A stretch of 64,000 nucleotides of DNA, taken from contig CBDFGR010000002.1 in the NCBI GenBank assembly GCA_965247115.1, positions 2,112,001 to 2,176,000 on the forward strand, in the 5' to 3' direction. Each line of letters opens with the position of its first letter. Within the stretch, counting starts at the first letter, position 1. Positions 5,248 through 50,383 of this stretch are shown here, one piece after another. The position numbers and the translations under genes were made by a program. The stretch comes from Myxococcota bacterium (GTDB taxonomy: Bacteria; Myxococcota_A; UBA9160; SZUA-336). The notes beneath the pieces are model-generated. The model saw only the letters and a program-made list of their open reading frames with translations. It was not told where the DNA came from and did no database searches.

Positions 5248-5669
5248 TCTGATGGGTGCCGCCCAGCCTCTCTGCGATGGGTGGCAGACAGTCCTCGTTG
5301 CACCGGAAACATCGCGCTCCCTCGGGTGCCTGGACCTAGGAGTACGCCGTGTGCCTTGACCTTGCCCGCCAGCTCCTCTGATCACGCGATCGTCGAGCTT
5401 CTCGATCTGACCAATCGCGGTCGTCTCTCCACGACGCTCCGAGTCTAGGAGGGAGAGCCGCTTTCTATTGAAGTCGATCCTCACAAAGTCGGCGAGGCTG
5501 ACCCCGTCCGCATCTCCCTTGACGCAGTCGCCGTCCACTCGGCACTCGACGGCGTCCATGAAGGCGCAGATGAACTCGGAAGAGCCGTCGAAAGTGTCCG
5601 CGCCCGCGGGAGCGGCGACGAGGAGGGCACACAGGCCGCGGAGTCAAGCTCCCGCTCGTTCTCGTGCAA

Positions 5670-5850
5670 TCACCGGCAGATCTCGACGCTTCGAGGTGGG
5701 CGGAGCCACGCTCTCCTCCGCACTCGAGGCACTCATCCAGCAGCGGCCCGGCCTCGCTTACCACCTCTTCGACGACGCCCGCCAGATGCGACGCCACATT
5801 CTGTGCTTCTGCAACGACGAGTACCGGCGCGGCCGCGCTGTCGAAGATCC
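5670..5850 (+). pseudogene. MoaD/ThiS-like fragment
   Basis: FEVGGATLSSALEAL..PGL..HLFDD..RRHILCFCND; no start or GG terminus. Boundaries approximate. Confidence 0.45.
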
Positions 5851-5921
5851 CTACTCGAAGCGACCGCTGAGTTCGATACTGGTATGTACCCTAGGGCCGA
5901 CCGAGCGTTCGCGCGGAGAAA

Positions 5922-8285
5922 TCAGTGGAAGCGATATTTGAGCTCTACTCCGTAGCGCCGGGGATCCGCGTAGAGGCTCATCGGACCACCGGTCGTTGCG
6001 ACATCGATCACGAGATTCAAGTGGTCTTTGTCTCCGAGATTGTTGACGAAGAAGTGCAGCTCAAAGTCGCCGAGCGTGTCCTCGAGCCTTCCACCTGCGG
6101 TGGCGAGGATGACCCGCGCGTTGGATAAGCTGTAGCTGGACTGTTCGGAGTAGGTTTCGTTGAAAGACGTGAAGTAGTAATTGTCCGACCAGGAATACTC
6201 ATACCGAAGCGAGGCCGATCCAAGGTCCGAGATGGGCACGGTGTAGTCCCCGCTGATGAAGAAGCTCTTGTCGGGGGCACGGGGCAGCTGATTCCCTTTG
6301 AGGTCCTCGATATTGCCGAAGAACGGGTTAAGTGAGAAGTATTCCTCGAACTCGGCATTCTGGATGGAGAGCCCGGCAGTCAACTGGAATCCCTCGAACG
6401 GGAAGGCCTGCAGCTCGGCTTCGAAGCCCAGCACCTCGGCGTCCGCGGCATTCTCAATGGTAGAGGAACTCGCGACGTTGACGGCAGCCTGGTAGTCTTC
6501 GTAGTCGTAGAAGAAGCCGACGAGATTCAAGCGGAGGCGGTCGTCGAGCCACTGGCTCTTCACACCGATCTCGTAGGACCAGAGGGTTTCCGGATCGTAG
6601 TCGGCCCCACAGGCGTCGGGATTTACGCCGCCGCCCTTAAAGCCGCGACTCACCGATGCGTATGCCATGACGGATTCCGCGACGTCGAAATCTACGCCGA
6701 ACTTCGGGGTCCAAGAGGTGTATTCCAGCTCGGTTTCGTGCCCTTCGCACAGGAAAAAATCGTGGCCAAAGCCGGGGATGTCCTCGAGCCCTGGGACTCC
6801 AAAAGACACAGTCTGATCAGTGTCCTTCTCCTCGTCACTGTATCGTATGCCGGCGGTTGCGCGGAGGCGCTCGGTCACGTGGTACGTCGCCTCCCCGAAC
6901 AGGGCCCAAGCCTCGGTGTCCTGATCCATACCGAAGATAAAATTGTCGACGATTTCCGCGTCCAGCACGTCAAACCCAGTTCCGCCGGCGTCCAGGATCT
7001 CCTGCCCCACGGCCGCCAAGTCGGGCAGTGTGTAGAAGAAGTGCGTGTCGGCGCGGTCCTTGAAGAGGTACGCTCCGACCACCCATTCGAGTTTCCCGTC
7101 GCCCGCGGAGCTCAGGGTGAGCTCCTGAGTCCACACCTTGGAATTCTGTTCCGAATTGGTGTTTATAAAGTTGGCCTCGGTTCCATCGAGGTCCCCATCG
7201 ACCTCCAACTCGTTATTGCGGAACGACGTGATGGAGTTGAGCGTCGCGTCACCAATCAGCGGCAGTCCGTGAAGGTCCAGCTTGATGGTGCTGCTGAGTC
7301 CCCAGACGCGCTTCTTGTCGGACAGCTTCCTGTCGATGTTGACGCGTTGGGCGTCCGGTTCCAGAGTGCCCCCGAACGTCACCGGACCGAACGGGATTAG
7401 CTGGCCGTTGTGCTGGAAGTGCGGCCCATGGTTACGGTCGCGCATCCAGTCGTAACGCACCAGGATCTCAAGGTCTTCGGCGGGGGTGTAGCGCAGCGCG
7501 CCTCGAAACGAGCCGTGATCGGTGTCGTCGAGCTTGTCCCCGTCGAAATTGTTCCGCCTCAGGCCGTCGCTCTGGTCCGTGGCCCAGCTCAGCCGCGCAC
7601 CCAGGTTCTCGTTAACCGGGCCGCCGAGAGCAGATCGAACGCGGTAGCGGTCGTTGTCTCCAGCCAGGGCGGAGAACTCCGCTTCCATAGATTCGGGTGG
7701 GGTCTTCGTCCACAGATTCATCGCCCCTCCGGTTGCATTCCGGCCGTAGAGCGTTCCTTGCGGACCTCGGAGCACCTCGATTCGCTCCAGGTCATCGTGG
7801 ATCGAGCTCGCGATGAAGTGGCGGGCCTGGTAGACGCCATCGATGTTGAGAGCGACTCCCGACTCACCCGCCATGGTGGGGATTTCGACGCCGACGCCGC
7901 GCAACGTGAATTGCGCGTTGGAGAGCGACTTGGCGAAGGTCAGGCCGGGAACGTGGAACTGCAGGTTCTCGATGCTGTCGAGGTCGCTGCGTGCGATATC
8001 ATCCGCAGAAAAGGCCGAGATCGCGATCGGTGTGGCCTGCAGGTTCGTCTCGCGACGCTCCGCCGTCACGACGAGCTCCTCGATCTGGGTCCGTCGGCTC
8101 AGGGAGGTCGCCTCTTCGGCCGCTTCTTCGGCCTCCTCTTCGACCAGTGCGGGCGGAGCCGGCACATCCACGTCTTCTCCGCTCGCCTCATCTCCGAGCG
8201 CGGGTGACGCAATGAGAGAGGCGCAGAGGGCGAGGGATGCGCCGTAAACAAAGAGCCGGCCTAAGTCAGTCGAGGGATTGCGCAT
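5922..8285 (-). CDS. TonB-dependent receptor
   Basis: Signal peptide, IEELVVTA TonB box, IEVLRGPQGTLYG, C-terminal YRF. Confidence 0.93.
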   Translation of the reverse strand: MRNPSTDLGRLFVYGASLALCASLIASPALGDEASGEDVDVPAPPALVEEEAEEAAEEATSLSRRTQIEELVVTAERRETNLQATPIAISAFSADDIARSDLDSIENLQFHVPGLTFAKSLSNAQFTLRGVGVEIPTMAGESGVALNIDGVYQARHFIASSIHDDLERIEVLRGPQGTLYGRNATGGAMNLWTKTPPESMEAEFSALAGDNDRYRVRSALGGPVNENLGARLSWATDQSDGLRRNNFDGDKLDDTDHGSFRGALRYTPAEDLEILVRYDWMRDRNHGPHFQHNGQLIPFGPVTFGGTLEPDAQRVNIDRKLSDKKRVWGLSSTIKLDLHGLPLIGDATLNSITSFRNNELEVDGDLDGTEANFINTNSEQNSKVWTQELTLSSAGDGKLEWVVGAYLFKDRADTHFFYTLPDLAAVGQEILDAGGTGFDVLDAEIVDNFIFGMDQDTEAWALFGEATYHVTERLRATAGIRYSDEEKDTDQTVSFGVPGLEDIPGFGHDFFLCEGHETELEYTSWTPKFGVDFDVAESVMAYASVSRGFKGGGVNPDACGADYDPETLWSYEIGVKSQWLDDRLRLNLVGFFYDYEDYQAAVNVASSSTIENAADAEVLGFEAELQAFPFEGFQLTAGLSIQNAEFEEYFSLNPFFGNIEDLKGNQLPRAPDKSFFISGDYTVPISDLGSASLRYEYSWSDNYYFTSFNETYSEQSSYSLSNARVILATAGGRLEDTLGDFELHFFVNNLGDKDHLNLVIDVATTGGPMSLYADPRRYGVELKYRFH

Positions 8286-8510
8286 TGTGCGGCCTCCATA
8301 TTCGGTGGCCAGGTGCTATCCCGGCTCCCAGCGTAGTCTGTCTCTCGCAATTCTTCCAGGTGAATGAGCATACGCTCGCCCGGTCCGCCCAGTCAACCGC
8401 ATAGTGCGTTGTTGAATCCGAGCGATTTCCGGCCAGTTACAGATCATCCCCGCCCGGAAGAACTCCACAGGAGGGAACCTCTAACTGGGCACCTCCTCGG
8501 TGCCACCGAC

Positions 8511-9330
8511 TTACTCCAGCAGCTTGAACGAGACCGCCGCGAAGAACCCCACCAGCGTCGAGATTCCGACCCGCGACCCCGAGCCCGCCAGGTGGACGGC
8601 TTCCGGAATCATGGTCGAGACGATCGTCGTGATCATGGCCCCGGCGGCGACGCCCTCGATGGCGATGAGCGCGTAGTGGGGAACCGCCCCCCCAATCGCG
8701 TACCCGACACCGGCGCCTGCCGCCGTGATCACCATCAACGCGCTCCACATCGAGAGCACGCGCATTCGGCTCCATCCCTGTGTCCGCATCGCCAGTGAGC
8801 TCGACAGCGCCTCTGGGAAGTTCGCCAGGAACAGCCCCGCGATCAGCGTGTAGGGGACGACCTCCGCAAAGGCCACGTCTGTTCCGCTCGCGAGGCGTCC
8901 TCTCAGTATCCCGAGGAAACCCGATCCGATCACGATGCTCTCGGGGATTCCGTCGATCAACATTCCGAGCCACACCGCGAGCCCGGCGCCGCTGCGCGCC
9001 TCTGCAGCCTGCCGGATCTCCGCCGGGCTCGGTACGACTGTTCCCTGTCGCAAAGCACCGATCGCCTGCTCCCCCCAGCTCTGTTCCATCTGGCTGCGAA
9101 CTGCATCGCGCTCGCGGATCTCCTCCAGTCGCTCGCTGGCCATCTCGCGAAAGCCCAGATCAAACTCCGGACACTCCGCACGCCAGCGCTCGAAGTCCGC
9201 TCCGCGCAGCACCAGTGCCTCTACGCGCCCTTTTGCTTGCGCAGAGACGGTGCGCGGAATACCGGCCAGCAGCGGAAGCTCGCCAAAGATCCCCCCGGCC
9301 CCCACCTCGAATAGCTCAGCATGGAGATGA
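8511..9330 (-). pseudogene. C-terminal part of cNMP-binding/ZIP-type metal transporter fusion
   Basis: FGELPLL..PRTVS (cNMP); DGIPES and ANFPEAL (ZIP). The N-terminus is replaced by unrelated sequence. Confidence 0.65.
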
Positions 9331-9512
9331 GTCCGAACTGACTCGCCCTCGGTAGCGCCTCTGCCATGGCTCCGAGGGCGTCCCAGTTCATCGTACCTCC
9401 GCTCCCTCCACATCGAACAGAGGCGCAAACCGGGTTGAGGCTTGTTCGACCCGAGGCGTCTAGGTTCCTCGCCCCCTCCTCCAAGGATGAGCTAGCCGAG
9501 GACGACGCCTAG

Positions 9513-10787
9513 CAGGCTGCGGAGAAAGTGACTGGTTGAGGGGTGGTCCTTCCGACGAGGGGGTTCACCGGCCGAGGGGCGGGGCGCGATTCCCGGTTCG
9601 AACCGGTCTTGGGCTCCGCTGATCGCGGGGCGGTTTCGCACATGACCTACGTGGCCTCCAGCAGCTTGCGGATCCGGATCAGGTTGTAGGCTGCGGCCGT
9701 GAAGGTGAAGACCCAGCCGACCCGATCCGTGCCGCGGTGTCGGGTCTTGCGCATCAGCCCCACGGTCTTCATCCAGCCGAAGACCTCTTCCACCCGTTTG
9801 CGAAAACGCTGACTCAGTTCGTAGCCCCGGTGGCGCGTCGTCCGCCCGTCGATCGCGCTGCGTCGATTCGTCGTGTTCTGCGCCACGTGTGGGGTCACGC
9901 CCAACTCTCGAAGCTCTTCCACGAACCCCTTCGTGTCGAAGCCCTTGTCTCCGCCCAATGTCCTCCGACGCCCGCCTCCCAGACCTTCCACCATCTCGAG
10001 CGCCGCTTCGCGCTCCGCATATCCCGACGCCTGCGTGAGCTTCGCCGCGACCACCAAGCCGTTCCGGTTCTCCGTCACCACGTGTCCCTGGTACGCGAGT
10101 CGGGCGCCTTGGCCTCTCATACCGGCGAGTCGTGCGTCGGGATCCGTCGTCGACGCATGCGTCTGGTTGCTCCGCTTCTCGCCTCGGAAGTTCACCGTCG
10201 GGTTGCCCGGGTCATCGTCGTCTCTCCGTTCCTCGTCCTTCCGTACGAAGCTCTTCTGGCTCGCCCACGCCTCGATCAGCGTCCCGTCTACCGTGAAGTG
10301 CTCCAACGACACCCATCCCTCGGTCTCGGCCTGCTCCAGCACTGCGTCGAAGAAGTGCTCGGCAATCTCGCCCTTGAGCAGCCGGTCTCGGTTCTTCGTG
10401 AACACCGTGGCGCTGAACACCACCTCGTCAAGCTCCAGACCCACGAACCAGCGATACAGCAGGTTGTACTCCAGCTGCTCCACCAGCTGCCGCTCGCTCC
10501 GGATGGTGTAGAGCACCTGCAGCAGCAGGGCGCGCAGCAGCTGCTCCGGGGGCACGGACGGGCGCCCTACGCCTCTGGCGTAGATCGCGTCGAAGCGCGG
10601 CGATAGCCGCTGCAGCGCCGTGTCGACCATGCGCCGCATCGCTCGAAGCGGATGATCATCCGGAATCCGCGACTCCAGCGACACGTAGCTGAACATCCCG
10701 CCCTGAAGCGTCCCCTGTCCTCTCACGCCTCCCCCTTTGGGGCTCGCTCCCAAGGTACCCTTCGATGAGGAGTTTTTCAGCAGCCTG
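9513..10787 (-). mobile_element. IS5-family insertion sequence, copy 1 (1,275 bp)
   Basis: Imperfect TIRs CAGGCTGCGGAGAAAG/CAGGCTGCTGAAAAAC; CTAG on both sides (9509-9512, 10788-10791). Confidence 0.9.
9647..10726 (-). CDS. IS5-family DDE transposase
   Basis: MFSYVSLE..HPLR, GRPSVPPE, RSERQL, VDGTLIEAWAS, GDKGFD, RKRVEEVFGW. Confidence 0.92.
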   Translation of the reverse strand: MRGQGTLQGGMFSYVSLESRIPDDHPLRAMRRMVDTALQRLSPRFDAIYARGVGRPSVPPEQLLRALLLQVLYTIRSERQLVEQLEYNLLYRWFVGLELDEVVFSATVFTKNRDRLLKGEIAEHFFDAVLEQAETEGWVSLEHFTVDGTLIEAWASQKSFVRKDEERRDDDDPGNPTVNFRGEKRSNQTHASTTDPDARLAGMRGQGARLAYQGHVVTENRNGLVVAAKLTQASGYAEREAALEMVEGLGGGRRRTLGGDKGFDTKGFVEELRELGVTPHVAQNTTNRRSAIDGRTTRHRGYELSQRFRKRVEEVFGWMKTVGLMRKTRHRGTDRVGWVFTFTAAAYNLIRIRKLLEAT

Positions 10788-12404
10788 CTAGAGGCCCGGC
10801 TCGCCCGCGGCGCGCGCGCGCTCGAGGCGGCTCGCCTCGTCGCGCTCCAGGTGGCGGCAGGCGAGCAGTAGAAGCGCGACCGTCGCCAGGATGGCCAAGA
10901 GCGCGAGCAGCATCGCCGAGCGCAGCGCCTCCGCATCCGTTTGCCCGCCCGCCTCGAGCGCGTCGCTGAGGCGGCCGATCGTGTAGGGACCGAGCGCGAG
11001 CCCGACAAACGTGACCGTGAGGATGTAGAACGCCGACGCCGTGGCGCGCATGCGCGGCATGACCAGGTCGTTGACCGTGGTCGCGGCGGGGCCGATCCAC
11101 ATGTACGTGCCCAGGGCGAGCGCCACATTCATCAGGTATGCGAACCACACCTTGTCGGTCAGGAGCATGCCGACGATGAAGGGCACGGGTGCGACCGCGG
11201 CGAAGAGTCCCACGTAGAGCCGGGCGTTTGGCGTGTGTCGGCGCAGCCAGTCGGACACGACGCCTCCGAGGGTCACACCGGCCCAGCCTACAATGGCGGC
11301 GGTCAGACCGAGCACGGTGCCGGTCTCGGCCGCGCTGAGACCGTGCATCCGTTGAAAGAAGGGCGGCACCCAGAAGCCGAGGCCGTAGCCCGTGAACGCG
11401 AGAAGCGAGAACCCACCCGCGCTGTAGAGGAGCGCGCGGCTCCCGAAGATCATCTGAAACGTCGCGGCGTCGCGCAGCACCAGGCCCTGCGCCCAAGAGA
11501 TCGCACCATAGAGACCGATCCCGAGGGCGATCCACTGCTCCGGGTTTCCGAGCCAGGCGATTAGGCCCGCGGCCAAGAGCGCTATGGCAGCCGCGATGGC
11601 CACGTTCAGGCCAAGGGCCCTCCGGGACGCGCCACTTCGCACGAGGCTCCAAATGGTGAAGGGCGGCAGCACCGCGAGCAGCTCGCGCAGGGGCTCCCGA
11701 AAGGGATGGAGGTTCGGCTTGGGAGGTGCCAGCCCCTCGCTCTGGCCGCGCACAGGCTCCCGCAGGGTCCAGACCCAGACCGCGAGCAGGAGACCGGGCA
11801 GGCCGACGGCGAAGAAGGCTGCCTGCCAGCCGACCAGTCCGAACGGGGCCCCGCCGGCTTCGAAAGCGCGATTCCACGAGTCGGAGATTATTCCGCCGAG
11901 GAAGATCCCGATGCCCGCTCCGATGTTTCCGCCGCTCGAGTAGATCGAGAGGACGGTTGCGCGCAGCCGGGGTGGAAAGTAGTCACTCAACAGCGAAAAT
12001 GCGGCCGGGGTCGCACTCGCTTCGCCAATACCGACCCCGACGCGGAACACCGCCAGGCTGCCGAAGCCGCGCGCAATGCCCGATAGGGCCGTCATGACGC
12101 TCCAGAAGGACAGTCCCAGCGAGATCAATCTCGTGCGCACCCACACGTCGGCCAGCCGACCGAGCGGGATCCCGAACATCGCGTAGAACACCGCGAAGGC
12201 GGTGCCGTACAAGAACGCCAGCTGGGCGTCGGAGAGACCGAGGTCGGCTTTGATCTGCTCCGCGAGGATCGACAGGATGTGCCGGTCGAGGAAGTTGAAC
12301 ACGTACACGATGACGAGCACGCCGAGCACGTAGCGGGGGTACGGCCCGCCGACCTCCGAGCTCGGATGGGCGGGCTTCGGGTCGGGCGCAGCGGGGGCGG
12401 GCAT
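10788..12404 (-). CDS. MFS transporter (Spinster-like)
   Basis: FNFLDRHILSIL, GRLADVWVR, GVGIGEAS, SDYFPP; many hydrophobic segments. Confidence 0.9.
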   Translation of the reverse strand: MPAPAAPDPKPAHPSSEVGGPYPRYVLGVLVIVYVFNFLDRHILSILAEQIKADLGLSDAQLAFLYGTAFAVFYAMFGIPLGRLADVWVRTRLISLGLSFWSVMTALSGIARGFGSLAVFRVGVGIGEASATPAAFSLLSDYFPPRLRATVLSIYSSGGNIGAGIGIFLGGIISDSWNRAFEAGGAPFGLVGWQAAFFAVGLPGLLLAVWVWTLREPVRGQSEGLAPPKPNLHPFREPLRELLAVLPPFTIWSLVRSGASRRALGLNVAIAAAIALLAAGLIAWLGNPEQWIALGIGLYGAISWAQGLVLRDAATFQMIFGSRALLYSAGGFSLLAFTGYGLGFWVPPFFQRMHGLSAAETGTVLGLTAAIVGWAGVTLGGVVSDWLRRHTPNARLYVGLFAAVAPVPFIVGMLLTDKVWFAYLMNVALALGTYMWIGPAATTVNDLVMPRMRATASAFYILTVTFVGLALGPYTIGRLSDALEAGGQTDAEALRSAMLLALLAILATVALLLLACRHLERDEASRLERARAAGEPGL

Positions 12405-13891: not shown

Positions 13892-15079
13892 ATGCAGTGT
13901 CGAGCCGCCGTCGCCGGTGTGGGCGAGTCGAACTACTACAAGCGAGGCGGCGCCCCCGAGACCGAGTTTCAGCTGGCGTGCATTGCCATCCGCAATGCGG
14001 TGGAAGACGCGGGTCTCGGGCTCTCGGACGTAGACGGCTTCGTGTCGTACGTGGACTCGCGCAACGACCCCGTGCTCCTCTCGTCCGCGCTCGGTCTTTC
14101 CAAGGTGGACTTCACCGCGCAGACGTACGGCGGGGGCGGAAACGGAGTAGGGTCTGCGGTCGCGATCGCGGATGCCGCGGTCATCGCGGGGTACGCGCAA
14201 CACGTCGTGGTGTTCCGCGCGGTGGCCCAGGGCCAGTTCGAGCGCTTCGGGCAGGCCATGATCGGCTGGTCCACGATGTCACAAAAAACAGGCCGGACGC
14301 GCGCCCCCGCGCCCGACGCCTACACGGCGCCGTACGGCTTGGTCAGCGCGGCCCAGGTCAACGCGATGCAGACCCAGCGGTATATGTACGAGCACGGCCT
14401 GGGGCAGGACGCCCTCGCGGACGTAACGCTGGCCTGCTACGAGCACGCGCAGCACAACCCGCGGGCCCTGCGCTACGGCACGCCGCTCTCGCGCGAGGAC
14501 TACCACGCGTCGCGCTGGATCGCCGAGCCCTTTCACCTGTACGACTGCTGCCCCGAAAACGACGGGGCCGCGGCTGTGGTGGTGACGACGACTGAGCGCG
14601 CGCGCGACCTGCGCCACGCGGCCGTCCCGATTTTGGCCGCCGCGCAGGGGCTCGAACGAGGCGGTGGGATCGGCGCGTTCAACGAGACGCCCTTTCCCAC
14701 CGCGCACATGCGCCCCGTCGGCGAGCGCCTGTGGGGGCGGGCGGGGGTGACGGCCGCGGACGTGGACGTGGCGCAGTTCTACGAGAACTTCACCGGGCCG
14801 GTGCTCATCGCGATCAGCGAGATGGGCTTCTGCGAACCCGAGGGACTGAACGAGTTCGTTGGGAACGACCGGCTGCTGTGGAAGAGCGGGGGCCTGCCCC
14901 TGAACACGAGCGGCGGGAACATCGGCGAGGCGTACATCCACGGCTTCGGGCTCGTGAACGAGGCCGTGCGCCAGATCCGCGGCGACTCGACGTGCCAGGT
15001 CGAGGACGCCGGGCTCAGCCTGGTCGTGGGGGGGCCGGGCTACGCACTGGGTAGCGCTGTGCTGTTCTGTCGAGACTGA
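13892..15079 (+). CDS. SCP-x-type thiolase / lipid-transfer (Ltp-like) protein
   Basis: AVAGVG, HAQHNPRA, DCCPENDGAAA, LNTSGG..EAYIHG. Confidence 0.88.
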   Translation: MQCRAAVAGVGESNYYKRGGAPETEFQLACIAIRNAVEDAGLGLSDVDGFVSYVDSRNDPVLLSSALGLSKVDFTAQTYGGGGNGVGSAVAIADAAVIAGYAQHVVVFRAVAQGQFERFGQAMIGWSTMSQKTGRTRAPAPDAYTAPYGLVSAAQVNAMQTQRYMYEHGLGQDALADVTLACYEHAQHNPRALRYGTPLSREDYHASRWIAEPFHLYDCCPENDGAAAVVVTTTERARDLRHAAVPILAAAQGLERGGGIGAFNETPFPTAHMRPVGERLWGRAGVTAADVDVAQFYENFTGPVLIAISEMGFCEPEGLNEFVGNDRLLWKSGGLPLNTSGGNIGEAYIHGFGLVNEAVRQIRGDSTCQVEDAGLSLVVGGPGYALGSAVLFCRD

Positions 15080-15089
15080 GGGAGGCCAC

Positions 15090-33011: not shown

Positions 33012-33043
33012 AGCCTACCTTCCAAACCCAAGGGGGACCCTCC

Positions 33044-39828: not shown

Positions 39829-40123
39829 CCAACTCGAGCGTTGGCTCGGTGACCAGGAGGGTCGTCTGCTCGGATAGCAATCAGCAAGGGGAACAAACCG
39901 CCCGCGGCGTCCCCACCAGATGAGCGGGCACCCGTTCGATCGCGCGGAGACGTCGCTCAACTGGATCAGGTCCACACGCCGTCGCGTCCCTCGAGCCCCT
40001 ACACCGTGGGGGGCGCGCGGTCGCGGTAGCGGCGCTCGATGCGCGCCCCCCAAATGCCCGACGGCTCGCCAGGATGCGAGTCGGCCGAGCTTAGGGCTCG
40101 GTCATCGCGCTCCCCTCCGACGG

Positions 40124-42276: not shown

Positions 42277-42357
42277 GGGTCTCCCTCTGGACGAGTCTGG
42301 GGGCGAGACTTCCTCCCCCGGGCGGAAGTCTCAGTAGGTATACCTCGTTCCGGCCCG

Positions 42358-43743
42358 CTACCGCACCGGGTCGATCGGAGTCGGCATGGGGGCCGCCGCC
42401 TCGATCGTCTCCGCGGCGGAGAGACACAGATCCTCGCGCCACAGGTCGGCGTAGACCTGGATGCCGGTGGGGAGGCCGTCCGCAACGCCCATCGGGAGCG
42501 CGACCGCGGGAAGCCCGAGGAGGTTGGCCGGGGTGATGAAGCGCACGCTGTCGACGAGGGTCTGAATTCCCGTATCCGGATCGAGATCGGCGTCGGCCGG
42601 CCACGGAAGGCAGCTCCATGTGGGGCCTACCGCCACAGGGTAGTCCGTCAAGAAGGCGGACCAGAGCCGGCCCAGGCGCGAGCGCTCCGAGTGGACCTCG
42701 GCGTTCGTCCTGTGCGAGGCGTCAAAGCGCGCCATCAAGCGCTGCATGCTCGCGAAGAGCGCCGGCGTGAGGAGGTCCTTGGTTGCGTCGTCCCGAGTGA
42801 GGTCGTCGATGGCAATCAGGTTGCCCCACACCTCGGTTACGCGGTCTAGCTCGGGTGGGTTTACCTCCTCTACTTCCCAACCCTGTTCCGTCAAGATTCG
42901 ACCCGCCCGCGGGATCTCTCCGACGGTGCTGGGCGGGAGCTCGATTTCGGGGACTTGCGTGACCAGCGCAGCTCGGCGGCGCGTCGGCGCGGGCCCCTGG
43001 AGGGGGGCGTCGACGGAGCGCGGGTCGCGGATGTCGCGCCCGGCCAGGATCGACAGGGCCAGCCGCAGGTCGGCGACCGAGCGCGCCATCGGCCCCTCGA
43101 CGAGCATCGCCTGACCCGACATGCCCATGTCCTGCGGCTCGAAGGCGCTCGCGCGCGGAATGCGGCCCTGGGTCGGTTTGAGCGACGCGATGCCGCAGCA
43201 GTACGCCGGATTGCGCACCGACCCGCCGATGTCATTCCCGAGCCCGATGGGCGTCATCCCGGTCGCGAGCGCAGCCCCCTCGCCGCCGCTCGAGCCGCCC
43301 GGGGTGCGCGCGCCATCCCAAGGGTTGCGGGTTCGTCCGCGCAGCGGGTTGTCCGTGTCGAGCCGCGAGCCGAACTCCGGCAGGTTGGTCCGAGCCAACG
43401 GGATCGTGCCGGCGCCCTTCATGCGCGACACCACCGGCGCGTCGCGCGACGGCAGCCGCTCGGCGAACGCTGGCACGCCGTCCGTTGTCGGCGACCCGAC
43501 GCAGTCGATGTTCTCCTTGATCGTGAACGGCACCCCGTGAAGCGGGCCTGTCGGCGTCGCCTGGTCGGCCGCGGCCGCCGCGAGGGCGGACTCGGCCAGC
43601 ACCACCGTGATCGCGTTGACGTGGCCGTTCACGTCCTCGATCCGCGCCAGGTGAGCCTCGACGACCTCGCGACTGGTCGTCTCGCGGCGGCGGATCCGTT
43701 GGGCCAGCTCGCTCGCGCTCTTCCTCCAGAGTTCCCCGGCCAT
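42358..43743 (-). CDS. Amidase signature family protein
   Basis: GPLHGVPFTIKE, GGSSGG, GNDIGGSVRNPA. Confidence 0.92.
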   Translation of the reverse strand: MAGELWRKSASELAQRIRRRETTSREVVEAHLARIEDVNGHVNAITVVLAESALAAAAADQATPTGPLHGVPFTIKENIDCVGSPTTDGVPAFAERLPSRDAPVVSRMKGAGTIPLARTNLPEFGSRLDTDNPLRGRTRNPWDGARTPGGSSGGEGAALATGMTPIGLGNDIGGSVRNPAYCCGIASLKPTQGRIPRASAFEPQDMGMSGQAMLVEGPMARSVADLRLALSILAGRDIRDPRSVDAPLQGPAPTRRRAALVTQVPEIELPPSTVGEIPRAGRILTEQGWEVEEVNPPELDRVTEVWGNLIAIDDLTRDDATKDLLTPALFASMQRLMARFDASHRTNAEVHSERSRLGRLWSAFLTDYPVAVGPTWSCLPWPADADLDPDTGIQTLVDSVRFITPANLLGLPAVALPMGVADGLPTGIQVYADLWREDLCLSAAETIEAAAPMPTPIDPVR

Positions 43744-43835
43744 GCGTCGCCTCACATCGGTGGGTGGTCGGTCAGTATGTCCAGCTTGGCGCACCCGCCT
43801 GCGGGCCTGTAAGCTGACGCCGATCGGAGGACGCC

Positions 43836-44684
43836 ATGGACGCCCAACTAGAACTGATCGCGAGCGGCTACAGGCTCGTCGAGGGCCCGCGCACCGACGC
43901 CGACGGCGCGCTCTGGTTTACCGACGCGTTGGGCGCGACGGTCCTCCGCCGCGACCCCAGCGGCGCCATCGAGACGGTCGTTTCGGACCGCCCGATGGTC
44001 GGGGGCTTGGCCGTCCACGTGGAGGGCGGGCTCGTCATGTCGGGGCCAAACGTCGCGCACTGGAAGGACGGCAAGTTTCGGGTGTTGCTCGAGGTGGACG
44101 GCGTGCGCTCCTTCAACGACCTACACACCGACGCGTTGGGGCGCGTGTACGTCGGCGCGATCCGCGCCGACGTCTCCGACTTGAAAAGCCCCCCCGAGCC
44201 ACCGGGCGAGGCGTACCGCATCGAGCTGGACGGGAGCGTCACCGAGCTGTACGGCGGCGTGGGCGTGTCAAACGGCATCGGCTTCTCACCCGACGGCGGG
44301 ACGCTCTACCACGTCGACTCGACGGGCAAGGGACTGTGGGCGCACGACGTCGACTCAGAGGGCGCGGTCTCGAACCGTCGCCACATCGGAGGCGCGGCGT
44401 TTGAGCGGGGCATCCCCGACGGGATGTGTGTCGACAGCCGGGGCAACCTGTGGGTCGCCCACGCCGGCCGTCGCCGCGTCGCGATCTTGGATCCGAAGGG
44501 GGAGCTCGTGGACGAGCTCCCCGTGCCCGCCCGCTCGGTCACGAGCTGCGCGTTCGGCGGAGCCGACTACGGCGACCTGTACATCGTGAGCGCGGACAAC
44601 ACGGACGACAGGAGCCTGCGCGGCTGCATCTGGCGCTGTCGCCCGGGTGTGACGGGGCTCCCGACGCCGCTCGCCCGCGTGTAG
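43836..44684 (+). CDS. SMP-30/gluconolactonase family protein
   Basis: EGP, FND, SNGIGFSPDG, PDGMCVD, SCAFGG. Confidence 0.9.
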   Translation: MDAQLELIASGYRLVEGPRTDADGALWFTDALGATVLRRDPSGAIETVVSDRPMVGGLAVHVEGGLVMSGPNVAHWKDGKFRVLLEVDGVRSFNDLHTDALGRVYVGAIRADVSDLKSPPEPPGEAYRIELDGSVTELYGGVGVSNGIGFSPDGGTLYHVDSTGKGLWAHDVDSEGAVSNRRHIGGAAFERGIPDGMCVDSRGNLWVAHAGRRRVAILDPKGELVDELPVPARSVTSCAFGGADYGDLYIVSADNTDDRSLRGCIWRCRPGVTGLPTPLARV

Positions 44685-44688
44685 GACC

Positions 44689-45021
44689 GTGGCGTCGGTC
44701 GAAGCGGGAGCGCCGGACGACCTCGCGGCTGCGCTCGCCCGCTGTGCCGACGAGTGGCGGAGCCACGGGTGGACGCTCGTCCCGTCGCTCGTGCCCGCGA
44801 CCGAGATCGACGCGGCGCTCGACGACCTGTGGGAGCTCTTCCCGACGCCAGCGGAGTTCCACGGGGACGCGCCGGATCGGCGGCGCGATCGCTTCTTTCG
44901 CGGGATCGATACGCGCGACATCGTCTCGCCTCCCGAGACGCAGAGCGGGCCCGAGTTCCGGCCGGACCAGTTCTTGGGACAGGCCGAGTTCCCGTTTCCG
45001 GGCTCGGGGCGCGGGACCTAG
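44689..45021 (+). pseudogene. Probable N-terminal fragment of phytanoyl-CoA dioxygenase-like protein
   Basis: WRSHGWTLVPSLV..EIDAA..FPT..EFPF; stops before any HxD motif. Confidence 0.45.
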
Positions 45022-47441
45022 CTGATCGCTCCGGAGGCGAAGGCCGCGCCGATTTCTTCTTCGGTCATGCCCAGGATCTCGCTCATCACCTCGTAGCTGT
45101 GCTGTCCGAGGCAGGGCGCCGCAAAGCGCGGACCGTTGTCGTAGCCTCGGATTCGATACTGATGACCGCTGTACGGGATGTTCCCCATCTCGGGGTGATC
45201 CAGGTAGCGGTAGAAACCTCGGTGCGCGTGCTGCGGGTCGACCAGTAGGTCGCTGCTGCGCTGGACCGCCCCCGCCGGGATCCCCGCACCCTGCAGGCGC
45301 TTCATCAGGGCGTAGCGCTCCTGGCCGCGCGTCCACTCGGCGAGCTTCTCGTCGAGCAGGTCGTGGAACTCCAGGCGACCCGCGGTGGAATCGTGCGCGG
45401 TTTCGCGGGCCCAGTCGGGATCCCCCAGCTCGCGGCGCAGCGCCCGCCACTGCTCGTCGCTTTCCACGGCAATCGCGCACCACTGGTCGTCGCCTGAGCA
45501 CGGGTAGCAACCCTGTGGGGCCGCGTCCGGGGCTCGGTTGCCGTTGCGAGTGGCCGCGTAGCCACTCACCTGGTAGTCGAGAATTTCTGGCGCCTGGAAG
45601 TGCAGCGAGGTCTCGATCTGCGCCACATCGATGTACTGTCCCTCGCCGGTTCTGCGCTTGTGGTCAATGGCGGCGGCCAGCACGGTGGAGATAAAGCGCG
45701 GAGCAATCGTATCGGTATAGGCGGCCCAGGGACCCGAAGGGGGAAGATCGGGCCAGCCCGTCACCTCGTGGAAGCCCGCGATCGCGCTGGCGTGATAGCC
45801 ATAGCCTGCAAAGCGCGCGGCGGGGCCGGTCTGCCCCATGAGGCAGGTGCTCACCATGATGATCCCGGGGTTGATCTTGCGAACCTCGTCGTAGCCCAGG
45901 CCCAGGCGCTCGATGGCTCCGGGCGCAAAGCTCTCGGTGAAGACGTCGGCCCAGGCGATCAGCTTCTTGGCGATCTCGAGCGCCCCCGGCGACTTCATCG
46001 CAAGGCTCAGACCCAGCTTCGAGGCGTTGAAGTCCCCGTAGTAATGCGAGCGATTCCAGCCCCCCACACCGTCCTTGAACGGTCCGCCGCCACGCAGCAC
46101 GTCGGGTCGACTCTCGGACTCGACGCGAACTACTGTCGCGCCGTGGTCGGCCAGGTACTTGGAGGATATCGGTCCGACTCCCACCCAGAAGAAGTCCGCG
46201 ACCTTGATGCCCTCGAATGGCAGTGCTTCGCCGGCGGGCTCTGGATAAGACTTCGGTCGGCGAGGCTGCGACAAAGCGGAGCGAATCTCGGCCCCGTGCT
46301 CATCGAGCGACGGCGCCGGGCGCCGCACCTCGAGCGGTGTGTTCGAGATCTTCGACCAGGAGCCCGGGCTGCGCACCGTCTGTCCGCCGGGAAGGGTCAG
46401 CGGCTTCCAATAATCGCGCGCCTCGAAGTGCTCGAAGGCGAGCAGCTCGGGAATCGAGTTGGCGGGCGCCAGTGTCGTGTCGTTCGACATGCCGAATTCG
46501 AGCAGCTCGCGCCGCGTGTGCTTGGCTGTGAACTGCTTGAAGAAGTCGCCGACCTCGTGAATGTTGTAGGGCTTGCGGTCCGGCAGGTGAAGCTGCTGGT
46601 CGAGCGCGACCCAATCGACGTCGCGCGCTGATTCGTCGAAGACACCGTCCGCGATCATCCAGTCCAGACAGCCGAGGATCGCGGCGGACGTGGGAAGCAG
46701 TACGATGTAGCCGTCGAGGCACTCGAAGAGAACGTACAAGACCAAGATTCCCGTATTGACGTTCGAGCCATCGCGCTCCAGGTTCCGCCCATCGATCCCG
46801 TGTGTCGCCATGCCGTTCAGCAGGGTCCAGGTCAGGGCCGCCTGGGCCGACAGGTCCACGAACTGCGCCGTACCCGTCTTGAGCATGCGGGCGTGCGCCG
46901 CCAGCGCCCCCGCCGCCGCCTCGGCTCCGGCGTGGCGCCAGATCTGCGGTAAGCTGACGCGTAGCGGCGCGCGGTCGCGCGGGCCCTGCAGGGCCACGGA
47001 CCCGCCCATTGCAGCCACGACCAGCTCGTCGCCGAGCAGGTCGGCGTGCGGACCGTCGGCGCCGAACGGCGAGAGCCGCACGTAGACGATCCGGGAGTTG
47101 AGCCGCTCGAGGTCCTCGAAGTCGAGTCCGTAGGGTTCCAGCGGGCGGCCCGGCGAGGACTCGAACAAAAAGTCGGAGCTGCGCACCAGCTCCCGCAGCG
47201 TCGCCCGGTCGTCCGGCGCCTCGGGATCCAGGACAATCGAACGCTTGTTGCGATTGAAGGCCAGGAACTGCAGGCTCTTCAGGTCCTCCGGCGCCCCCTT
47301 CAGGTGCGGTGCGCACAGGCGAGCCGCCGAGCCCCCGGGCGGCTCGACGCGAATCACGTCCGCGCCCAGATCGCCGAGCAGCATCGGCCCGAGCTCGCCC
47401 CGAGCATCCGTCAGATCCAGCACCCGATACGGGCTGAGCAT
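45018..47441 (-). CDS. Two-domain class III CoA-transferase
   Basis: Two CaiB units: LGADVIRVEPP/NRNKRS and HGATVVRVES/NASKLG. Confidence 0.9.
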   Translation of the reverse strand: MLSPYRVLDLTDARGELGPMLLGDLGADVIRVEPPGGSAARLCAPHLKGAPEDLKSLQFLAFNRNKRSIVLDPEAPDDRATLRELVRSSDFLFESSPGRPLEPYGLDFEDLERLNSRIVYVRLSPFGADGPHADLLGDELVVAAMGGSVALQGPRDRAPLRVSLPQIWRHAGAEAAAGALAAHARMLKTGTAQFVDLSAQAALTWTLLNGMATHGIDGRNLERDGSNVNTGILVLYVLFECLDGYIVLLPTSAAILGCLDWMIADGVFDESARDVDWVALDQQLHLPDRKPYNIHEVGDFFKQFTAKHTRRELLEFGMSNDTTLAPANSIPELLAFEHFEARDYWKPLTLPGGQTVRSPGSWSKISNTPLEVRRPAPSLDEHGAEIRSALSQPRRPKSYPEPAGEALPFEGIKVADFFWVGVGPISSKYLADHGATVVRVESESRPDVLRGGGPFKDGVGGWNRSHYYGDFNASKLGLSLAMKSPGALEIAKKLIAWADVFTESFAPGAIERLGLGYDEVRKINPGIIMVSTCLMGQTGPAARFAGYGYHASAIAGFHEVTGWPDLPPSGPWAAYTDTIAPRFISTVLAAAIDHKRRTGEGQYIDVAQIETSLHFQAPEILDYQVSGYAATRNGNRAPDAAPQGCYPCSGDDQWCAIAVESDEQWRALRRELGDPDWARETAHDSTAGRLEFHDLLDEKLAEWTRGQERYALMKRLQGAGIPAGAVQRSSDLLVDPQHAHRGFYRYLDHPEMGNIPYSGHQYRIRGYDNGPRFAAPCLGQHSYEVMSEILGMTEEEIGAAFASGAIS

Positions 47442-47547: not shown

Positions 47548-49488
47548 GTGCCACCGGACGTCGGCGGGTCTTGAATACCCGATGAGTTGCGACTCGTGTC
47601 GTTCGCGTTGAAACAGTTAGCGAACGACGCCTATAATGCTTCCACCTAGTGAAGGGAGGCTTCCCCGTGGCCGAGTATGACCTGCACATTCGCGGCGGCA
47701 CGATCGTGGACGGGACGAGGGTTCCCCGGTTCGCGGGTGACCTCTGGGTGAAGGACGGACGGATCGCGCAGATCGGCGGCCGGGCCCCGGGCGCCGCCGC
47801 GCGCGAGGTCGACGCTGGCGGACACATCGTCGCCCCCGGCTTCGTGGACCTTCACACCCACTACGACGCCCAGATCCGCTGGGACCCGTGGTGTACGATC
47901 TCCAGCTGGCACGGGGTGACCTCCGTCGTGCTCGGGAACTGCGGGTTCGGGTTCGCACCGGTCCGACCCGAGTTCCGGGAGCGCTCCATGCTCACGATGA
48001 CGCGGACCGAGGCCATCCCCATGGAGTCGATGCAGGAGGGGATGAACTGGGACTGGGAGACGATCCCCGAGTACCTCGACTCCCTGGATCGCGCGCCCAA
48101 GGGCGTCAACTGCCTGCAGTACATGCCCACCGCGTCGCTCATGACCTACGTGATGGGCCTGGAGGCCGCCAAGACCCGCCCGGCCACCCCGGCGGAGCGC
48201 GCGGAGATGCAGCGGCTGCTCCACGAGGGAATGGACGCGGGTCTGTGTGGCTTCTCGATTCAACGACTGGGCAAGGATTCCACCCAGGCCGACTTCGACG
48301 GATCTCCCATGGTCACAGACACCATGGTCGACGAGGACATCCTCTGCCTGGCCGAGGTGTTGCGAGAGCGCGACGAGGGCTTCATCCAGATCACGCAGGC
48401 CACGGGCCACAACCGGCGCGACCTGGCGTTCCAGGCCGAGCTGGCCCGCGTGGCGCAGCGCCCGATCCTCCACAACGCGGTGCCGGTCAGCCCCAGGAAC
48501 CCGCGGATCCACGAGAAGCGGCTGGAGTGGATCGACCGCTGCCGGGAGGAGGGGCTCCAGATGTTCGGCCAGGGCGGGACGTTGCGCGCGGGCTTCGTTT
48601 TCACGCTCGAGGACTGGAACCTCTACGACGCGAGTCGCGCGTGGCGCAAGGCGACCACGGGAAGCAAGGAGGAGCGGCTGAAGAAGCTCTCCGACCCCAA
48701 GATCCGCGAGGAGATGCGCCGCGAGTCCATGAGCGAGGTCGCGGAGAAGCTCCGCATCGTCCAGGCCGGGGTGGGCGGCCCGATGGAGAAGCTGCTCGTC
48801 CAGGACGTGAAGGGCCACGCCGAGCTCGAGAAGTACGTCGGAAAGTCGGTCGCGCAGATCGCCGAGGAGGAGGGCAAGCTCCCGGTCGACGCCATGCTGG
48901 ACGTCGCCGTCGCCGGAGACCTCGAGGTCGAGTTCCTCGGGCCCCCCCCCGCGCGCGGTCTGAACGCCGACCACATGGCTGCGATGATCAACGACTCCAT
49001 GTACACGTTCCCCGGGGTTTCCGACGGGGGCGCGCACACGAAGTTCTTCACCGGCGGCGCCTTCACCACGGACTTCCTGGTGTGGCTCGTCCGCGACGAG
49101 CCCCGGATCAGCCTCGAGGAGGCGCACTTCCGGCTGAGCGCGCTGCCCGCCCACGCCGCGGGCTTCCGCGATCGCGGGACGCTGCGGGTCGGCGCTCCGG
49201 CCGACATCGTCGTCTACGACCTGGACGCGCTCGACATCTCCCCGCGCTGGACCGGCGAGGTCGCCCACGACTTCCCGGGAGGCGAGTGGCGCCGCGTGCA
49301 GCACGCGATCGGCTACCGCGCCATCGTCGTCAACGGCGAGGTCACGTTCGCGGACGGCAAGTGCACCGGCGCGACCCCGGGCAAGCTGTTGCGCCACGGG
49401 TACGCGCCGGGAGCCTGACGTCTACAACTGCTCGAAGACATCCCTCCGCAGCTGAGACTTCCGGCCGACGCCGCCCTGGCGTGGCTCA
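47548..49488 (+). repeat. 1,941-bp unit, copy B
   Basis: Inverted match to 1019-2959. Confidence 0.95.
47667..49418 (+). CDS. N-acyl-D-amino-acid deacylase-like amidohydrolase (duplicate)
   Basis: Same translation as 1089-2840. Confidence 0.9.
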   Translation: MAEYDLHIRGGTIVDGTRVPRFAGDLWVKDGRIAQIGGRAPGAAAREVDAGGHIVAPGFVDLHTHYDAQIRWDPWCTISSWHGVTSVVLGNCGFGFAPVRPEFRERSMLTMTRTEAIPMESMQEGMNWDWETIPEYLDSLDRAPKGVNCLQYMPTASLMTYVMGLEAAKTRPATPAERAEMQRLLHEGMDAGLCGFSIQRLGKDSTQADFDGSPMVTDTMVDEDILCLAEVLRERDEGFIQITQATGHNRRDLAFQAELARVAQRPILHNAVPVSPRNPRIHEKRLEWIDRCREEGLQMFGQGGTLRAGFVFTLEDWNLYDASRAWRKATTGSKEERLKKLSDPKIREEMRRESMSEVAEKLRIVQAGVGGPMEKLLVQDVKGHAELEKYVGKSVAQIAEEEGKLPVDAMLDVAVAGDLEVEFLGPPPARGLNADHMAAMINDSMYTFPGVSDGGAHTKFFTGGAFTTDFLVWLVRDEPRISLEEAHFRLSALPAHAAGFRDRGTLRVGAPADIVVYDLDALDISPRWTGEVAHDFPGGEWRRVQHAIGYRAIVVNGEVTFADGKCTGATPGKLLRHGYAPGA

Positions 49489-49704
49489 GGTCTGGATGGG
49501 CGAGCCGCGCAACGTGCGGGCATGACCCGCCTGGTGCCCAATCTGACCGAGAACTTCCCGCGCGGTCTCCGGAGCACACTGGTTCCTCTAGCCCGGGGAC
49601 CGCTGAGCACTCTTCCGCGAGGGACGTGCGCCGATGCAGGCGCCGCCCGTTCGCGGTTAGCAGCAGCGACCAATGGTGCATCCCAACACTCGAGCCGGAT
49701 GAGG

Positions 49705-50064
49705 TCAGGTCGAGGCATGCGCGGGCAACGGGCCGATCAGCTCGACGAACCAGCGACGTTCCCGCTCCCGCGCCTCGTCGAGCGCGCCTGTCAGGTACGC
49801 GGCCAGCCCGCGTTTCTCCTCATCCGAGAGCTCGCTCGCATTGGGCGCCATCGGGCCGGTCGTGAGCGCCTCGAGCACCCGCTCCGGCGTGAAGGCTCCG
49901 AGGGCCTCGCGACTGACCGCGTTGGGGATCGTAGCGGTCGTTCCGTGGCAGAGCGCGCACTGCTCCTCGAAGATGAAGGCGTAGTTGGAATCTGTCACCT
50001 GCGCCCACGTCGCCCCCGGCAGCAACACCGTGAGGGCGACAGACGCCAGGACAAACCATCTCAT
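49705..50064 (-). pseudogene. Signal peptide + cytochrome c domain, likely truncated N-terminus of a larger dehydrogenase
   Basis: CALCHG, ALTTGPM..LSDEEKRGLAAYLTG, then unrelated sequence. Confidence 0.6.
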
Positions 50065-50383
50065 CAGCGTGCCTCCTGGATGGACTGTGTTCCCCACTCG
50101 TGGCTTCCTTTGGGGAGAGGGAGTGTAAGAGGGTTTTTCGGGTTGTGACAATGGCCCTTCCCGTCCTATCGATTGGTCTGAGGACCGGGCCGCGGATCGG
50201 CCCGGAAGGGGCGGTCATTTTGGAGAGCCTGCGTGGCGACGACGCCGGCACGGTGATCGAGTACCTCGGCGAGAGCGGCACGGTTGTCGGGAAGGCCACG
50301 TCCGCGGACTTCGGGCAGCTCCTGGCCCAGTAGAGAGCCTGCTCCGAGCCCAGGGGCGGGCCATCGGGAGCTCGCAGCGCTTT

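Follow-up and report, generated by a model that had tools for sequence, protein, structure and literature searches.

Comparison with described systems

Integron arrays are compact rows of single genes with short flanks, which turn over between strains. The same features are found in the 64,000-nucleotide stretch analysed here (the window; C2:2112001-2176000 in the genome of a Myxococcota bacterium, G000, 5.17 Mb in three contigs, 66% GC), a patchwork of whole enzyme genes and cut pieces of other genes, but here IntI and attC are absent, both strands are used, the genes have their own promoters, and the spacers consist of gene debris. In the innovation-amplification-divergence model of duplicated genes we find a second parallel: duplicates kept both in G000 and in its sister species G002 (same genus, separate species) diverge with an excess of amino-acid changes, with phage escape as an alternative for the TonB receptor. 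Gene-fragment capture in eukaryotes by Pack-MULE elements is a further comparable case. Helitrons (PMC4778049, PMC4289320) also associate rolling-circle ends with captured fragments; our locus differs from both in being bacterial, in the survival of whole expressed-type genes, and in a link to an element at few junctions only.

The closest mosaics are those of IS91/ISCR elements, such as IS801 (PMC3189936), the sdpA/rdpA clusters of Sphingobium herbicidovorans MH (PMC5737581) and the ISCR28 sandwich structures (PMC12772301). They share with our locus a Y2 HUH transposase with a conserved downstream end, remnants reduced to the origin next to captured or cut genes, a cargo of catabolic genes, and an outward promoter-like sequence in the end (outward promoters are described in oriIS, namely POUT of ISCR1; PMC6218425). 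In contrast to these cases, the stubs found here are much shorter (70-88 bp) and sharply clustered in length, there are 18 per genome without a whole transposase in G000, CTTG/GTTC is not preferred, and most junctions show no element at all. Variable segments formed by illegitimate recombination (PMC2884548) and DNA capture through non-homologous end joining (NHEJ; PMC6379672) are similar in the absence of mobile-element ends, in the blunt, short-overlap and filler joins, and in the presence of Ku and LigD. The differences are the packing of ~one junction per kilobase over ~115 kb and the modules shared between species.

It is the combination that is unusual: a single-gene grain with few element remnants, module trading between species, sharply sized origin stubs, and a whole-gene amino-acid excess in duplicates. 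No description of such an island or of 84-bp ISCR stubs was found in the literature covered, mostly papers outside subscription. We consider it probable that the locus is a mosaic catabolic island, made by module copying and horizontal exchange together with break-and-rejoin events (likely by Ku/LigD), in which the ISCR stubs are a likely vehicle among others, and selection has likely maintained and diversified the whole genes. Large paralog sets (amidohydrolases, luciferase-like monooxygenases, PQQ dehydrogenases, TonB receptors) are found in such uncultured lineages, and their origin is rarely caught in progress. Here, one ~115 kb block and the sister species show duplicates, longer parents, strain-level rearrangements and amino-acid excess together, and both duplication-divergence and NHEJ-assisted gene transfer become testable on natural alleles.

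Architecture of the patchwork

Bare coordinates are window positions; C2 and C3 are contigs of G000, C26 and C32 those of G002. Genes were called with a self-trained hexamer model and named from Pfam. The whole genes of the window encode amidohydrolases, a TonB receptor, an MFS protein, a thiolase pair, an esterase, luciferase-like and flavin monooxygenases, a PQQ dehydrogenase, an aminotransferase, SDR enzymes, CoA-transferases, a glutathione S-transferase, an amidase and a lactonase. Between these genes (hand-drawn list of intact genes, spacers of at least 60 bp, span 4901 to 50383), a named gene fragment is present in 13 of the 21 spacers (13 of the 16 longer than 200 bp), and one further spacer contains a transposon-end stub. 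In a uniform screen against the own proteome, the 45 kb span holds 10 fragments, compared with 1.6 per 45 kb elsewhere in G000, that is ~six times the genome average; in the reversed-sequence control none of 498 matched. These two counts confirm the patchwork that had been proposed from the sequence alone.

The sequence-only reading had also named an equal fragment density over the chromosome as the observation that would speak against it. The density is instead focused: sliding windows reaching 10 fragments make up 2% and lie nearly all within C2:2.05-2.16 Mb. The enriched block (~C2:2.05-2.165 Mb, ~115 kb, ~one junction per kilobase) reaches some 60 kb to the left of the window, and weaker fragment-rich blocks occur elsewhere in G000 (e.g. 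C3:1.035 Mb). A stricter test gave eight partial hits in 40 kb of the window and eight in 60 kb of the matching G002 region, compared with four in 293 kb from 15 paralog-rich stretches of nine other genomes, where the sensitivity is lower for distant genomes.

The intact genes are trimmed tightly, as had been noted. The median distance from the stop codon to a mapped junction is 37 bp (11 genes; 0, 5 and 9 bp in three of them), and from the start codon to a junction 90 bp (10 genes). Tight same-strand neighbour pairs make up 12%, compared with 38-47% per contig. The visible variation in AT content between genes holds in a reduced form, as the difference between neighbours in GC content at third codon positions is 0.055, only modestly above the genome-wide 0.038.

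Pfam matches were obtained for 17 of 150 scanned spacer frames (the best-scoring 150 of 395 stop-to-stop frames). Fragments at or above the cut-off are SDR (two places), dipeptidase M19, Amidohydro_3, sulfatase, a reverse transcriptase (RT)/maturase, the N-terminus of an Rv2258c-like methyltransferase, PQQ, Amidohydro_2, cytochrome c and cNMP. The Rieske, epimerase and cupin fragments were identified through near-identical longer parents, and the amine oxidase fragment through a 91% DNA match to C2:2060104. Most of the fragment names first given from the sequence stand, with the exception of the weakly matching LVIVD (E value 0.003), MoaD/SAMP1 (4e-4) and ZIP (0.022, in the parent). No family name was obtained for the scraps 5383-5643, 24909-25079, 34938-35138 and 44689-45018. 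The features are as follows.

2964..3548, + strand: N-half of a tyrosine recombinase (PF00589), 5'-truncated passenger; score on TIGR02249 23 bits (cut-off 265); in G002 C32 a copy without interruption but with a frameshift
3549..4980, - strand: amidohydrolase unit (gene 3797-4900) inserted in the recombinase; 9-bp direct repeat 3540-3548 / 4972-4980
4972..5247, + strand: C-half of the tyrosine recombinase (PF00589)
5638..9305, - strand: module of a MoaD-like scrap, a TonB-dependent receptor (5922-8285) and a 5'-cut ZIP/cNMP gene (8511-9305); second copy at C2:1.804-1.808 Mb, two copies in G002
9507..10791, - strand: IS5-family element, late insertion; ~28 copies genome-wide, absent from this place in G002
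10788..12404, - strand: MFS transporter, intact; 98% to G002 C26
12950..13602, + strand: short pieces and SDR C-terminal half; between them G002 has 0.1, 0.9 and 4.2 kb more
13892..15521, + strand: thiolase-like and ChsH2-type OB-fold pair, intact
15624..16826, - strand: Amidohydrolase_2, intact; diverged duplicate at C2:1.81 Mb
16872..16940, - strand: family-2 IS91/ISCR origin stub, ~70 bp; transposase gene still attached at the same place in G002 C32
16970..18043, - strand: esterase (Abhydrolase_3), intact
18155..20620, - strand: Amidohydrolase_2 gene interrupted by the second IS5 copy (19208-20494); a junction follows its stop after 5 bp
20887..21975, + strand: luciferase-like monooxygenase (LLM); four copies across two species, pN/pS 1.5-2.2
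22018..22188, + strand: dipeptidase M19 C-terminal scrap (Pfam)
22190..22633, - strand: PNPOx-like gene; compared with G002, pN/pS is 2.3-3.8 at P about 0.09
22734..22835, + strand: LVIVD-like scrap, weak
22856..24820, - strand: flavin monooxygenase, intact and under purifying selection (0.28); the stop is followed by a junction after 9 bp
25079..26215, unstranded: scrambled block with the N-termini of a Rieske and an amidohydrolase gene, sulfatase pieces in both orientations and the start of an epimerase gene; inverted and deleted version of G002 C26:180.5-191 kb
26276..28456, + strand: PQQ dehydrogenase with cytochrome c, intact
28532..29692, unstranded: scraps, namely the C-termini of a hypothetical protein and of an amidohydrolase (the latter a copy of 931-1286), the middle of an epimerase, and pieces of a copper amine oxidase and of a 361-residue paralog
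30325..30969, + strand: SDR, frameshifted, 3'-cut
30970..31629, - strand: group II intron RT/maturase C-terminal piece (TIGR04416 positions 180-352)
31662..34367, unstranded: aminotransferase III, NIPSNAP and SDR genes, intact
34404..35141, unstranded: methyltransferase N-terminal scrap and unidentified scraps
35150..36334, - strand: CoA-transferase III, intact
36431..36922, + strand: internal fragment of a PQQ glucose dehydrogenase
36991..37641, - strand: glutathione S-transferase, intact
37687..37878, + strand: group II intron RT N-terminal piece (TIGR04416 positions 4-59), strand opposite to the C-terminal piece
37932..39662, - strand: Amidohydro_3 enzyme, intact
39776..40503, - strand: copy of C2:2105036-2105763 containing amidohydrolase scraps; the cut coincides with the stop codon of the following gene
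40504..47441, unstranded: monooxygenase, amidase, SMP-30 lactonase, 110-residue open reading frame (unidentified) and double CoA-transferase; sequencing run X7 lacks 42394-43505
47548..49488, + strand: inverted, 100% identical copy of 1019-2959 (589-residue amidohydrolase, plus 101 bp of upstream and 70 bp of downstream sequence)
49786..50067, - strand: N-terminal cytochrome c piece of a PQQ dehydrogenase, whole gene in G002
50112..50195, - strand: family-1 IS91/ISCR origin stub of 84 bp with its outer end at 50112; TTGTCA-N18-TACACT, facing outward, was recognised by eye
50199..53459, unstranded: inner-side cargo of the stub (3' half of a cupin gene, MaoC, acyl-CoA dehydrogenase, CoA-transferase); 99% copy of C2:2078713-2081972

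Upstream of the 589-residue amidohydrolase, a near-consensus sigma-70 promoter is overlapped by a 9-bp inverted repeat (2859-2966, copies at 25282-25390 and 47547-47648), which is likely an operator, judging from its position.

Modules shared with the sister species

The comparison covers 818 kb of G002 (14% of its genome), picked around matches. The G002 regions C26:178-243 kb and C32:795-826 kb are built of the same modules as the window, in shuffled order, mostly with 93-99.7% identity (few with 89-92%), compared with 82-90% for the syntenic backbone of the two genomes. The best matches comprise ~218 kb at 82-90% and ~100 kb at 94-100%, and the pieces of high identity match many scattered G000 sites. 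We read these pieces as recent horizontal exchange and not as binning carry-over, because they share contigs with the syntenic backbone and bear their own insertion sequences and junctions. The modules measure 0.3-7 kb and are also duplicated within G000.

Longer parents of fragments, which had been suggested as a check, were found nearby, elsewhere in G000, or in G002. The whole epimerase of G002 (C26:190873-191997) is present in G000 as three pieces (26070-26126, 29016-29317 and C2:2111373-2111799), and the Rieske gene of G002 is reduced to its N-terminus. The block 25079-29317 corresponds to G002 C26:178.9-191.4 kb after inversion, deletion and partial duplication; its sulfatase pieces face opposite ways. 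The two group II RT scraps represent one family, one scrap being its N-terminal and the other its C-terminal part, and lie on opposite strands; the 589-residue amidohydrolase is present twice as a whole gene, plus two fragments. From the epimerase, Rieske, RT and amidohydrolase patterns, the fragments are seen to be mostly debris (by inversion, deletion and duplication) of neighbouring multi-gene modules and not single captures. The capture of genes one by one into an integron-like array, as first proposed, is therefore not supported. A Trb-type conjugation-like gene set, recognised by eye from the translations, lies ~30 kb from the G002 patchwork (L017:14871-19377; G002 C32:856-860 kb) and is a possible transfer route.

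Assembly support and strain variation

The assembly is not chimeric. This was examined with contigs of other sequencing runs, leaving out those with a small share; part of 22-32 kb is present in 21 of the 22 runs listed, from 11 studies. None of those listed is an RNA run, which bears neither way on expression. The contigs of run X1, possibly the source sample, show no differences over most of 22.2-39.4 kb. Contigs of the runs X4, X6 and X7 (three other studies, each with its own substitutions) bridge many junctions, e.g. 24749-25320, 25690-26972, 29316-30807, 31619-35210, 32615-36247, 36429-37686, 43652-45855 and 45834-47859. In G002, 11 of 65 probed 90-bp positions are spanned, and within 1-21.9 kb G002 or other G000 loci span e.g. 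5900, 8480, 13620, 15584, 16872 and 20823. A chimeric assembly or amplification artefact, the alternative that the sequence-only reading had kept, is largely refuted by this bridging and spanning; its probability is next to negligible, even if the compared sequences are contigs and not raw reads, the library type is not on record, and the run-contig comparison covers 21,900-48,900 of the span up to 50,333.

The comparison of strains, also suggested earlier, reveals junctions that partly differ from those of the window. Run X7 skips 42394-43505 (two letters fit both sides), X4 has an inverted, opposite-strand joint 30974/33011, X4 and X6 carry extra DNA at 40503/40504, and X4 and X7 depart from the window sequence at the RT scrap 37687-37878. 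Frameshifts occur in fragments, and in strain X7 one fragment has acquired a stop.

Near-identical phage-like blocks are common to contig ends (C1:1-6007, C2:251-279 kb, C2:2205-2217 kb, C3:1-7341 and C3:2634-2643 kb of G000) and probably explain the assembly breaks.

Junctions and probable end joining

The junction set comprises 24 hand-picked junctions with both parents known (the lineage of origin is not always known for each). Sixteen abut within 2 bp, and eight carry 5-258 bp of unassigned filler. Among the 16 flush junctions, three show an exact overlap of at least 5 bp (9, 6 and 5 bp; random null ~0.8% each, P 3e-4), one an imperfect 7-bp overlap, and 12 an overlap of 0-2 bp or an insert of 1-2 bp, which is compatible with Ku/LigD and not specific to it. 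The null was taken from an automatic survey of 202 junctions, otherwise set aside since it mixed in tandem repeats and alignment breaks. Joining at microhomologies of a few base pairs, as read from the sequence, is thus enriched and concerns a minority of joins, most having 0-2 bp. Ku is encoded at C2:976233, LigD Prim-Pol domains at C2:973736 (beside Ku), C3:421836 and C3:1150909, and ComEC is also present. In Sinorhizobium, foreign DNA is captured by NHEJ, its ends being shortened by deletions and non-templated bases being present at the joins (PMC6379672), and the mixed junction spectrum resembles this repair and capture. End joining would be the tool of the rearrangement, not its trigger.

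IS91/ISCR origin stubs

Two junctions of the window, missed in the first reading like the sharing between species and the amino-acid excess in duplicated cargo genes, are short IS91/ISCR origin stubs (50112-50195 and 16872-16940). The former is a copy of an 84-bp repeat (family 1) with 18 copies in G000 (E value below 1e-4), mostly between accessory genes, and 16 in the G002 sample; it was found in three of 201 genomes of the class, all of this genus. One copy lies ~130-210 bp downstream of the 3' half of a Y2 transposase (PF04986, C2:1293173-1293940), and because of this position the repeat is read as an oriIS of the IS91 family; its sequence presumably resembles the oriIS of ISCR1. The stubs are ISCR-like by position, not by target rule. 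Of 27 family-1 copies with distinct inner flanks, 17 end at 79-88 bp and 19 at 73-88 bp. In IS91, the final 82 bp are enough for transposition (PMC13181058); the 84-bp stubs match this length, found sufficient by experiment, and would offer a concrete substrate for testing trans-mobilisation.

In the case of family 2, the G002 element L024 scores above the cut-off for PF04986 and PF14319. The matches to NCBIfam IS91 (104 vs 125) and ISCR clade Ia (322 vs 925) are below the cut-off, and no subfamily was assigned. The two G002 copies match each other only from locus position 1149. The family-2 stub of the window arose by inner deletion at a fixed site, because G002 keeps the transposase attached at the same site. 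The amidohydrolase unit 3549-4980 ends, at CAAG, at the base where a family-1 stub begins in G002 C26. Elsewhere the same stub and cargo are seen with different outer flanks, which recombination between stubs explains equally well. The outer-side gene points away from the stub in about half of the G000 copies, which is not decisive for an outward promoter.

Three further arrangements were observed. In G002 C32:700001-723000 (L029, L030) six family-1 stubs and a family-2-like end occur within 23 kb, with cargo matching scattered G000 sites at 95-99%. At L011:12203-12345 (G002 C26:232202-232344) a stub is closed off by 13 bp of its own outer end in inverse orientation, forming a unit of ~143 bp similar to a miniature inverted-repeat transposable element. 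Six stubs (G000 C2:677299, 823191, 1091793, 1294154, 2197375; C3:1192519) share an outer end of variant sequence that includes a short hairpin; this might be a circle junction or mark a second subfamily.

Probable selection on the cargo genes

The ratios of nonsynonymous to synonymous change (pN/pS) are uncorrected Nei-Gojobori (NG86) counts on pairs that are not independent. The background is 0.22-0.39 per identity class in 305 G000-G002 pairs and 0.14-0.32 in 350 internal pairs. A ratio of at least 1.4 with at least eight nonsynonymous changes is found in 12 pairs, 11 of which are the TonB receptor, LLM, PNPOx-like or esterase gene of the window or their G000 duplicates. The TonB copies range from 1.6 to 2.3; those within G000 differ by 130.5 nonsynonymous and 17.5 synonymous changes (pN/pS 2.3, P 2e-4). 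For LLM the ratio is 1.5-2.2, with P 0.026 for one pair. Codons with two or three changes number 31 in TonB (8.4 expected) and eight in LLM (about 2 expected). Four intact genes of strain X7 together have 16 nonsynonymous and seven synonymous codon changes, which are small numbers.

In the TonB receptor, one of 75 family-conserved positions varies. On the AlphaFold model (predicted local distance difference test 91.5) the variable sites are concentrated in the plug, residues 98-164 (31 of 67), and in the outer barrel (87 of 392, against 18 of 200; turns assigned from the DSSP order). Both TonB types are kept in both species. The pattern, as far as it can be read from the model, fits new ligands or phage escape; the latter cannot cover LLM, because it is cytoplasmic and not a phage receptor. 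The amino-acid excess in the duplicates likely reflects selection for new functions. Searches outside the two genomes gave seven distant loci for LLM in a JGI metagenome scan (27-34%) and, for the TonB protein, three clusters at 80-92%, the next being at 64% and below.

In a repeated phage-like region (G000 C3:2607996-2608472), a 158-residue protein differs from its paralog by 13 nonsynonymous and no synonymous changes.

Integron and retroelement candidates

An integron was rejected, as there is no IntI, no attC, and the strands are mixed. On TIGR02249 (cut-off 265) the two halves of the recombinase reach 23 and 35 bits, less than on the XerA/C/D models. The RYYYAAC...GTTRRRY pattern has two matches in the window, both inside genes (random windows average 0.9), and the Rfam scan gave none, which bears out the earlier statement that attC sites are absent, on the basis of pattern and Rfam. 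Strands switch at 38% of neighbours, as genome-wide, and -10-like boxes were seen by eye upstream of genes. The split recombinase was not accepted as the integrase of the island, being 5'-truncated, split, and a passenger in G002 too; a tRNA-Ala call at C2:2077415 was not taken as an attachment site, since it sits inside an open reading frame. A diversity-generating retroelement was also rejected: the RT pieces are of group II intron type and broken, and the TonB and LLM changes involve all bases and are spread over the genes (by eye), unlike the adenine-specific hypermutation of such elements.

Origin of the island

The explanation we prefer, a mosaic island formed by exchange of modules and break-and-rejoin, would proceed as follows. 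Modules of 0.3-7 kb, seen duplicated in the genome and shared with G002, would have moved recently by horizontal transfer. Local inversion, deletion and re-joining have scattered the pieces of one parent over several places, and strains still differ in this. The joins, mostly blunt, with 1-2 bp overlap or short filler and in a minority with 5-9 bp, may be the work of Ku/LigD, as the gene content and junction type suggest. ISCR-like rolling-circle elements insert in such regions and are cut back to stubs of 70-88 bp, as shown by their position and by one full-versus-stub pair, and the stubs could move or recombine the flanking cargo, which would apply to two or three of the several dozen junctions of the window. 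Deletion would finally trim the DNA to the edge of useful genes, and the duplicated receptor and monooxygenase genes, with their amino-acid excess, may have acquired new substrates.

A number of observations weigh against this explanation. With regard to the stubs, they occur at only two of the several dozen junctions, the densest part of the island (C2:2.05-2.11 Mb) holds no family-1 stub, the empty-site test gave no empty allele for any stub, G000 has no whole Y2 transposase, and CAAG/GAAC is found in one of 18 distinct outer flanks with an intact end, so that the CTTG/GTTC target rule of IS91 does not apply. As to end joining, no junction is tied directly to any enzyme, and LigD is also present in relatives (four of five genomes tested), yet the nine other genomes gave only the four partial hits mentioned above; NHEJ genes alone do not explain the hotspot, because relatives with LigD show no patchwork in the stretches examined. 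For 29.5-39.8 kb and 40.5-47.5 kb no close parent was found in the DNA examined. The 11 outlying gene pairs represent four families and, like the uncorrected counts as a whole, are not independent; the PNPOx-like and esterase excess is not significant, six other cargo genes are under purifying selection (0.12-0.5), and the TonB diversification could be phage escape.

The same evidence has to be set against other explanations. One is an ISCR-led cassette system, in which an 84-bp mini-origin produced by early termination was seeded over the genome and the patchwork is mainly its footprint: a transposase acting in trans would copy a stub with variable adjacent DNA, or stubs would recombine, the genes being cut at both ends and most stubs removed by later deletion. 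It would account for the clustered inner ends (17 of 27 copies at 79-88 bp), for the six stubs between different cargo genes in G002 C32:700-723 kb, for one stub with a hydrolase unit that has different outer flanks at G000 C2:1091793 and G002 C32:710525, for one outer flank carrying different cargoes, and for the recombinase-inserted unit that ends at CAAG where the G002 stub starts; IS801 is described to yield one-ended minis of 229-679 nt and to mobilise partial genes (PMC3189936). We still judge it unlikely, considering the two stubs among several dozen junctions, the lack of a target-tetranucleotide rule and of a whole transposase in G000, the clear origin of the family-2 stub by inner deletion at a fixed site, and the statement in PMC3189936 that most genomic IS801 fragments come from reorganisation. 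Equally doubtful is a bolder version, a genus-specific integron analogue without integrase, with the 84-bp ISCR origin as portable handle, recombination site and outward promoter, by which single genes for catabolism and uptake would be copied, traded between sister species and brought to a hotspot of scrambling, with positive selection on the duplicates; if true, enzymes and receptors would evolve there as in a natural workshop.

Another candidate process, natural transformation with homology-facilitated illegitimate recombination (summarised in PMC2884548), by which DNA of relatives anchors by homology in a resident copy and joins at a microhomology on the other side, with loss of resident DNA, agrees with the presence of ComEC, the cross-species modules and the microhomology enrichment; we find it quite improbable, as most mapped joins overlap by 2 bp or less, and the inversions and the three-way scattering of one gene need extra events. 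That the region is ordinary decaying junk rich in insertion sequences, with no adaptive role and with intact genes that have not decayed yet, seems very improbable. The frameshifts and the new stop in fragments, the IS5 insertions and several recent pairs with pN/pS of 0.7-0.9 agree with such decay, but pN/pS is significantly above 1 with multi-hit codons, 74 of the 75 conserved TonB family positions are unchanged, other cargo genes are under purifying selection, and the junctions stop close to gene ends.

Neighbouring repeats

Just left of the patchwork, tandem arrays are present in which ~nine paralogs are of the cytochrome c/PQQ dehydrogenase type and four to five are PQQ dehydrogenases, 80-90% identical (G000 C2:2004209-2032647 and 2056386-2058404). 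Within the window, a DUF5916 gene is followed by partial self-duplicates of 87-90% (53293-57213), and an ankyrin-repeat protein has 11 matched repeat stretches (62240-64000).

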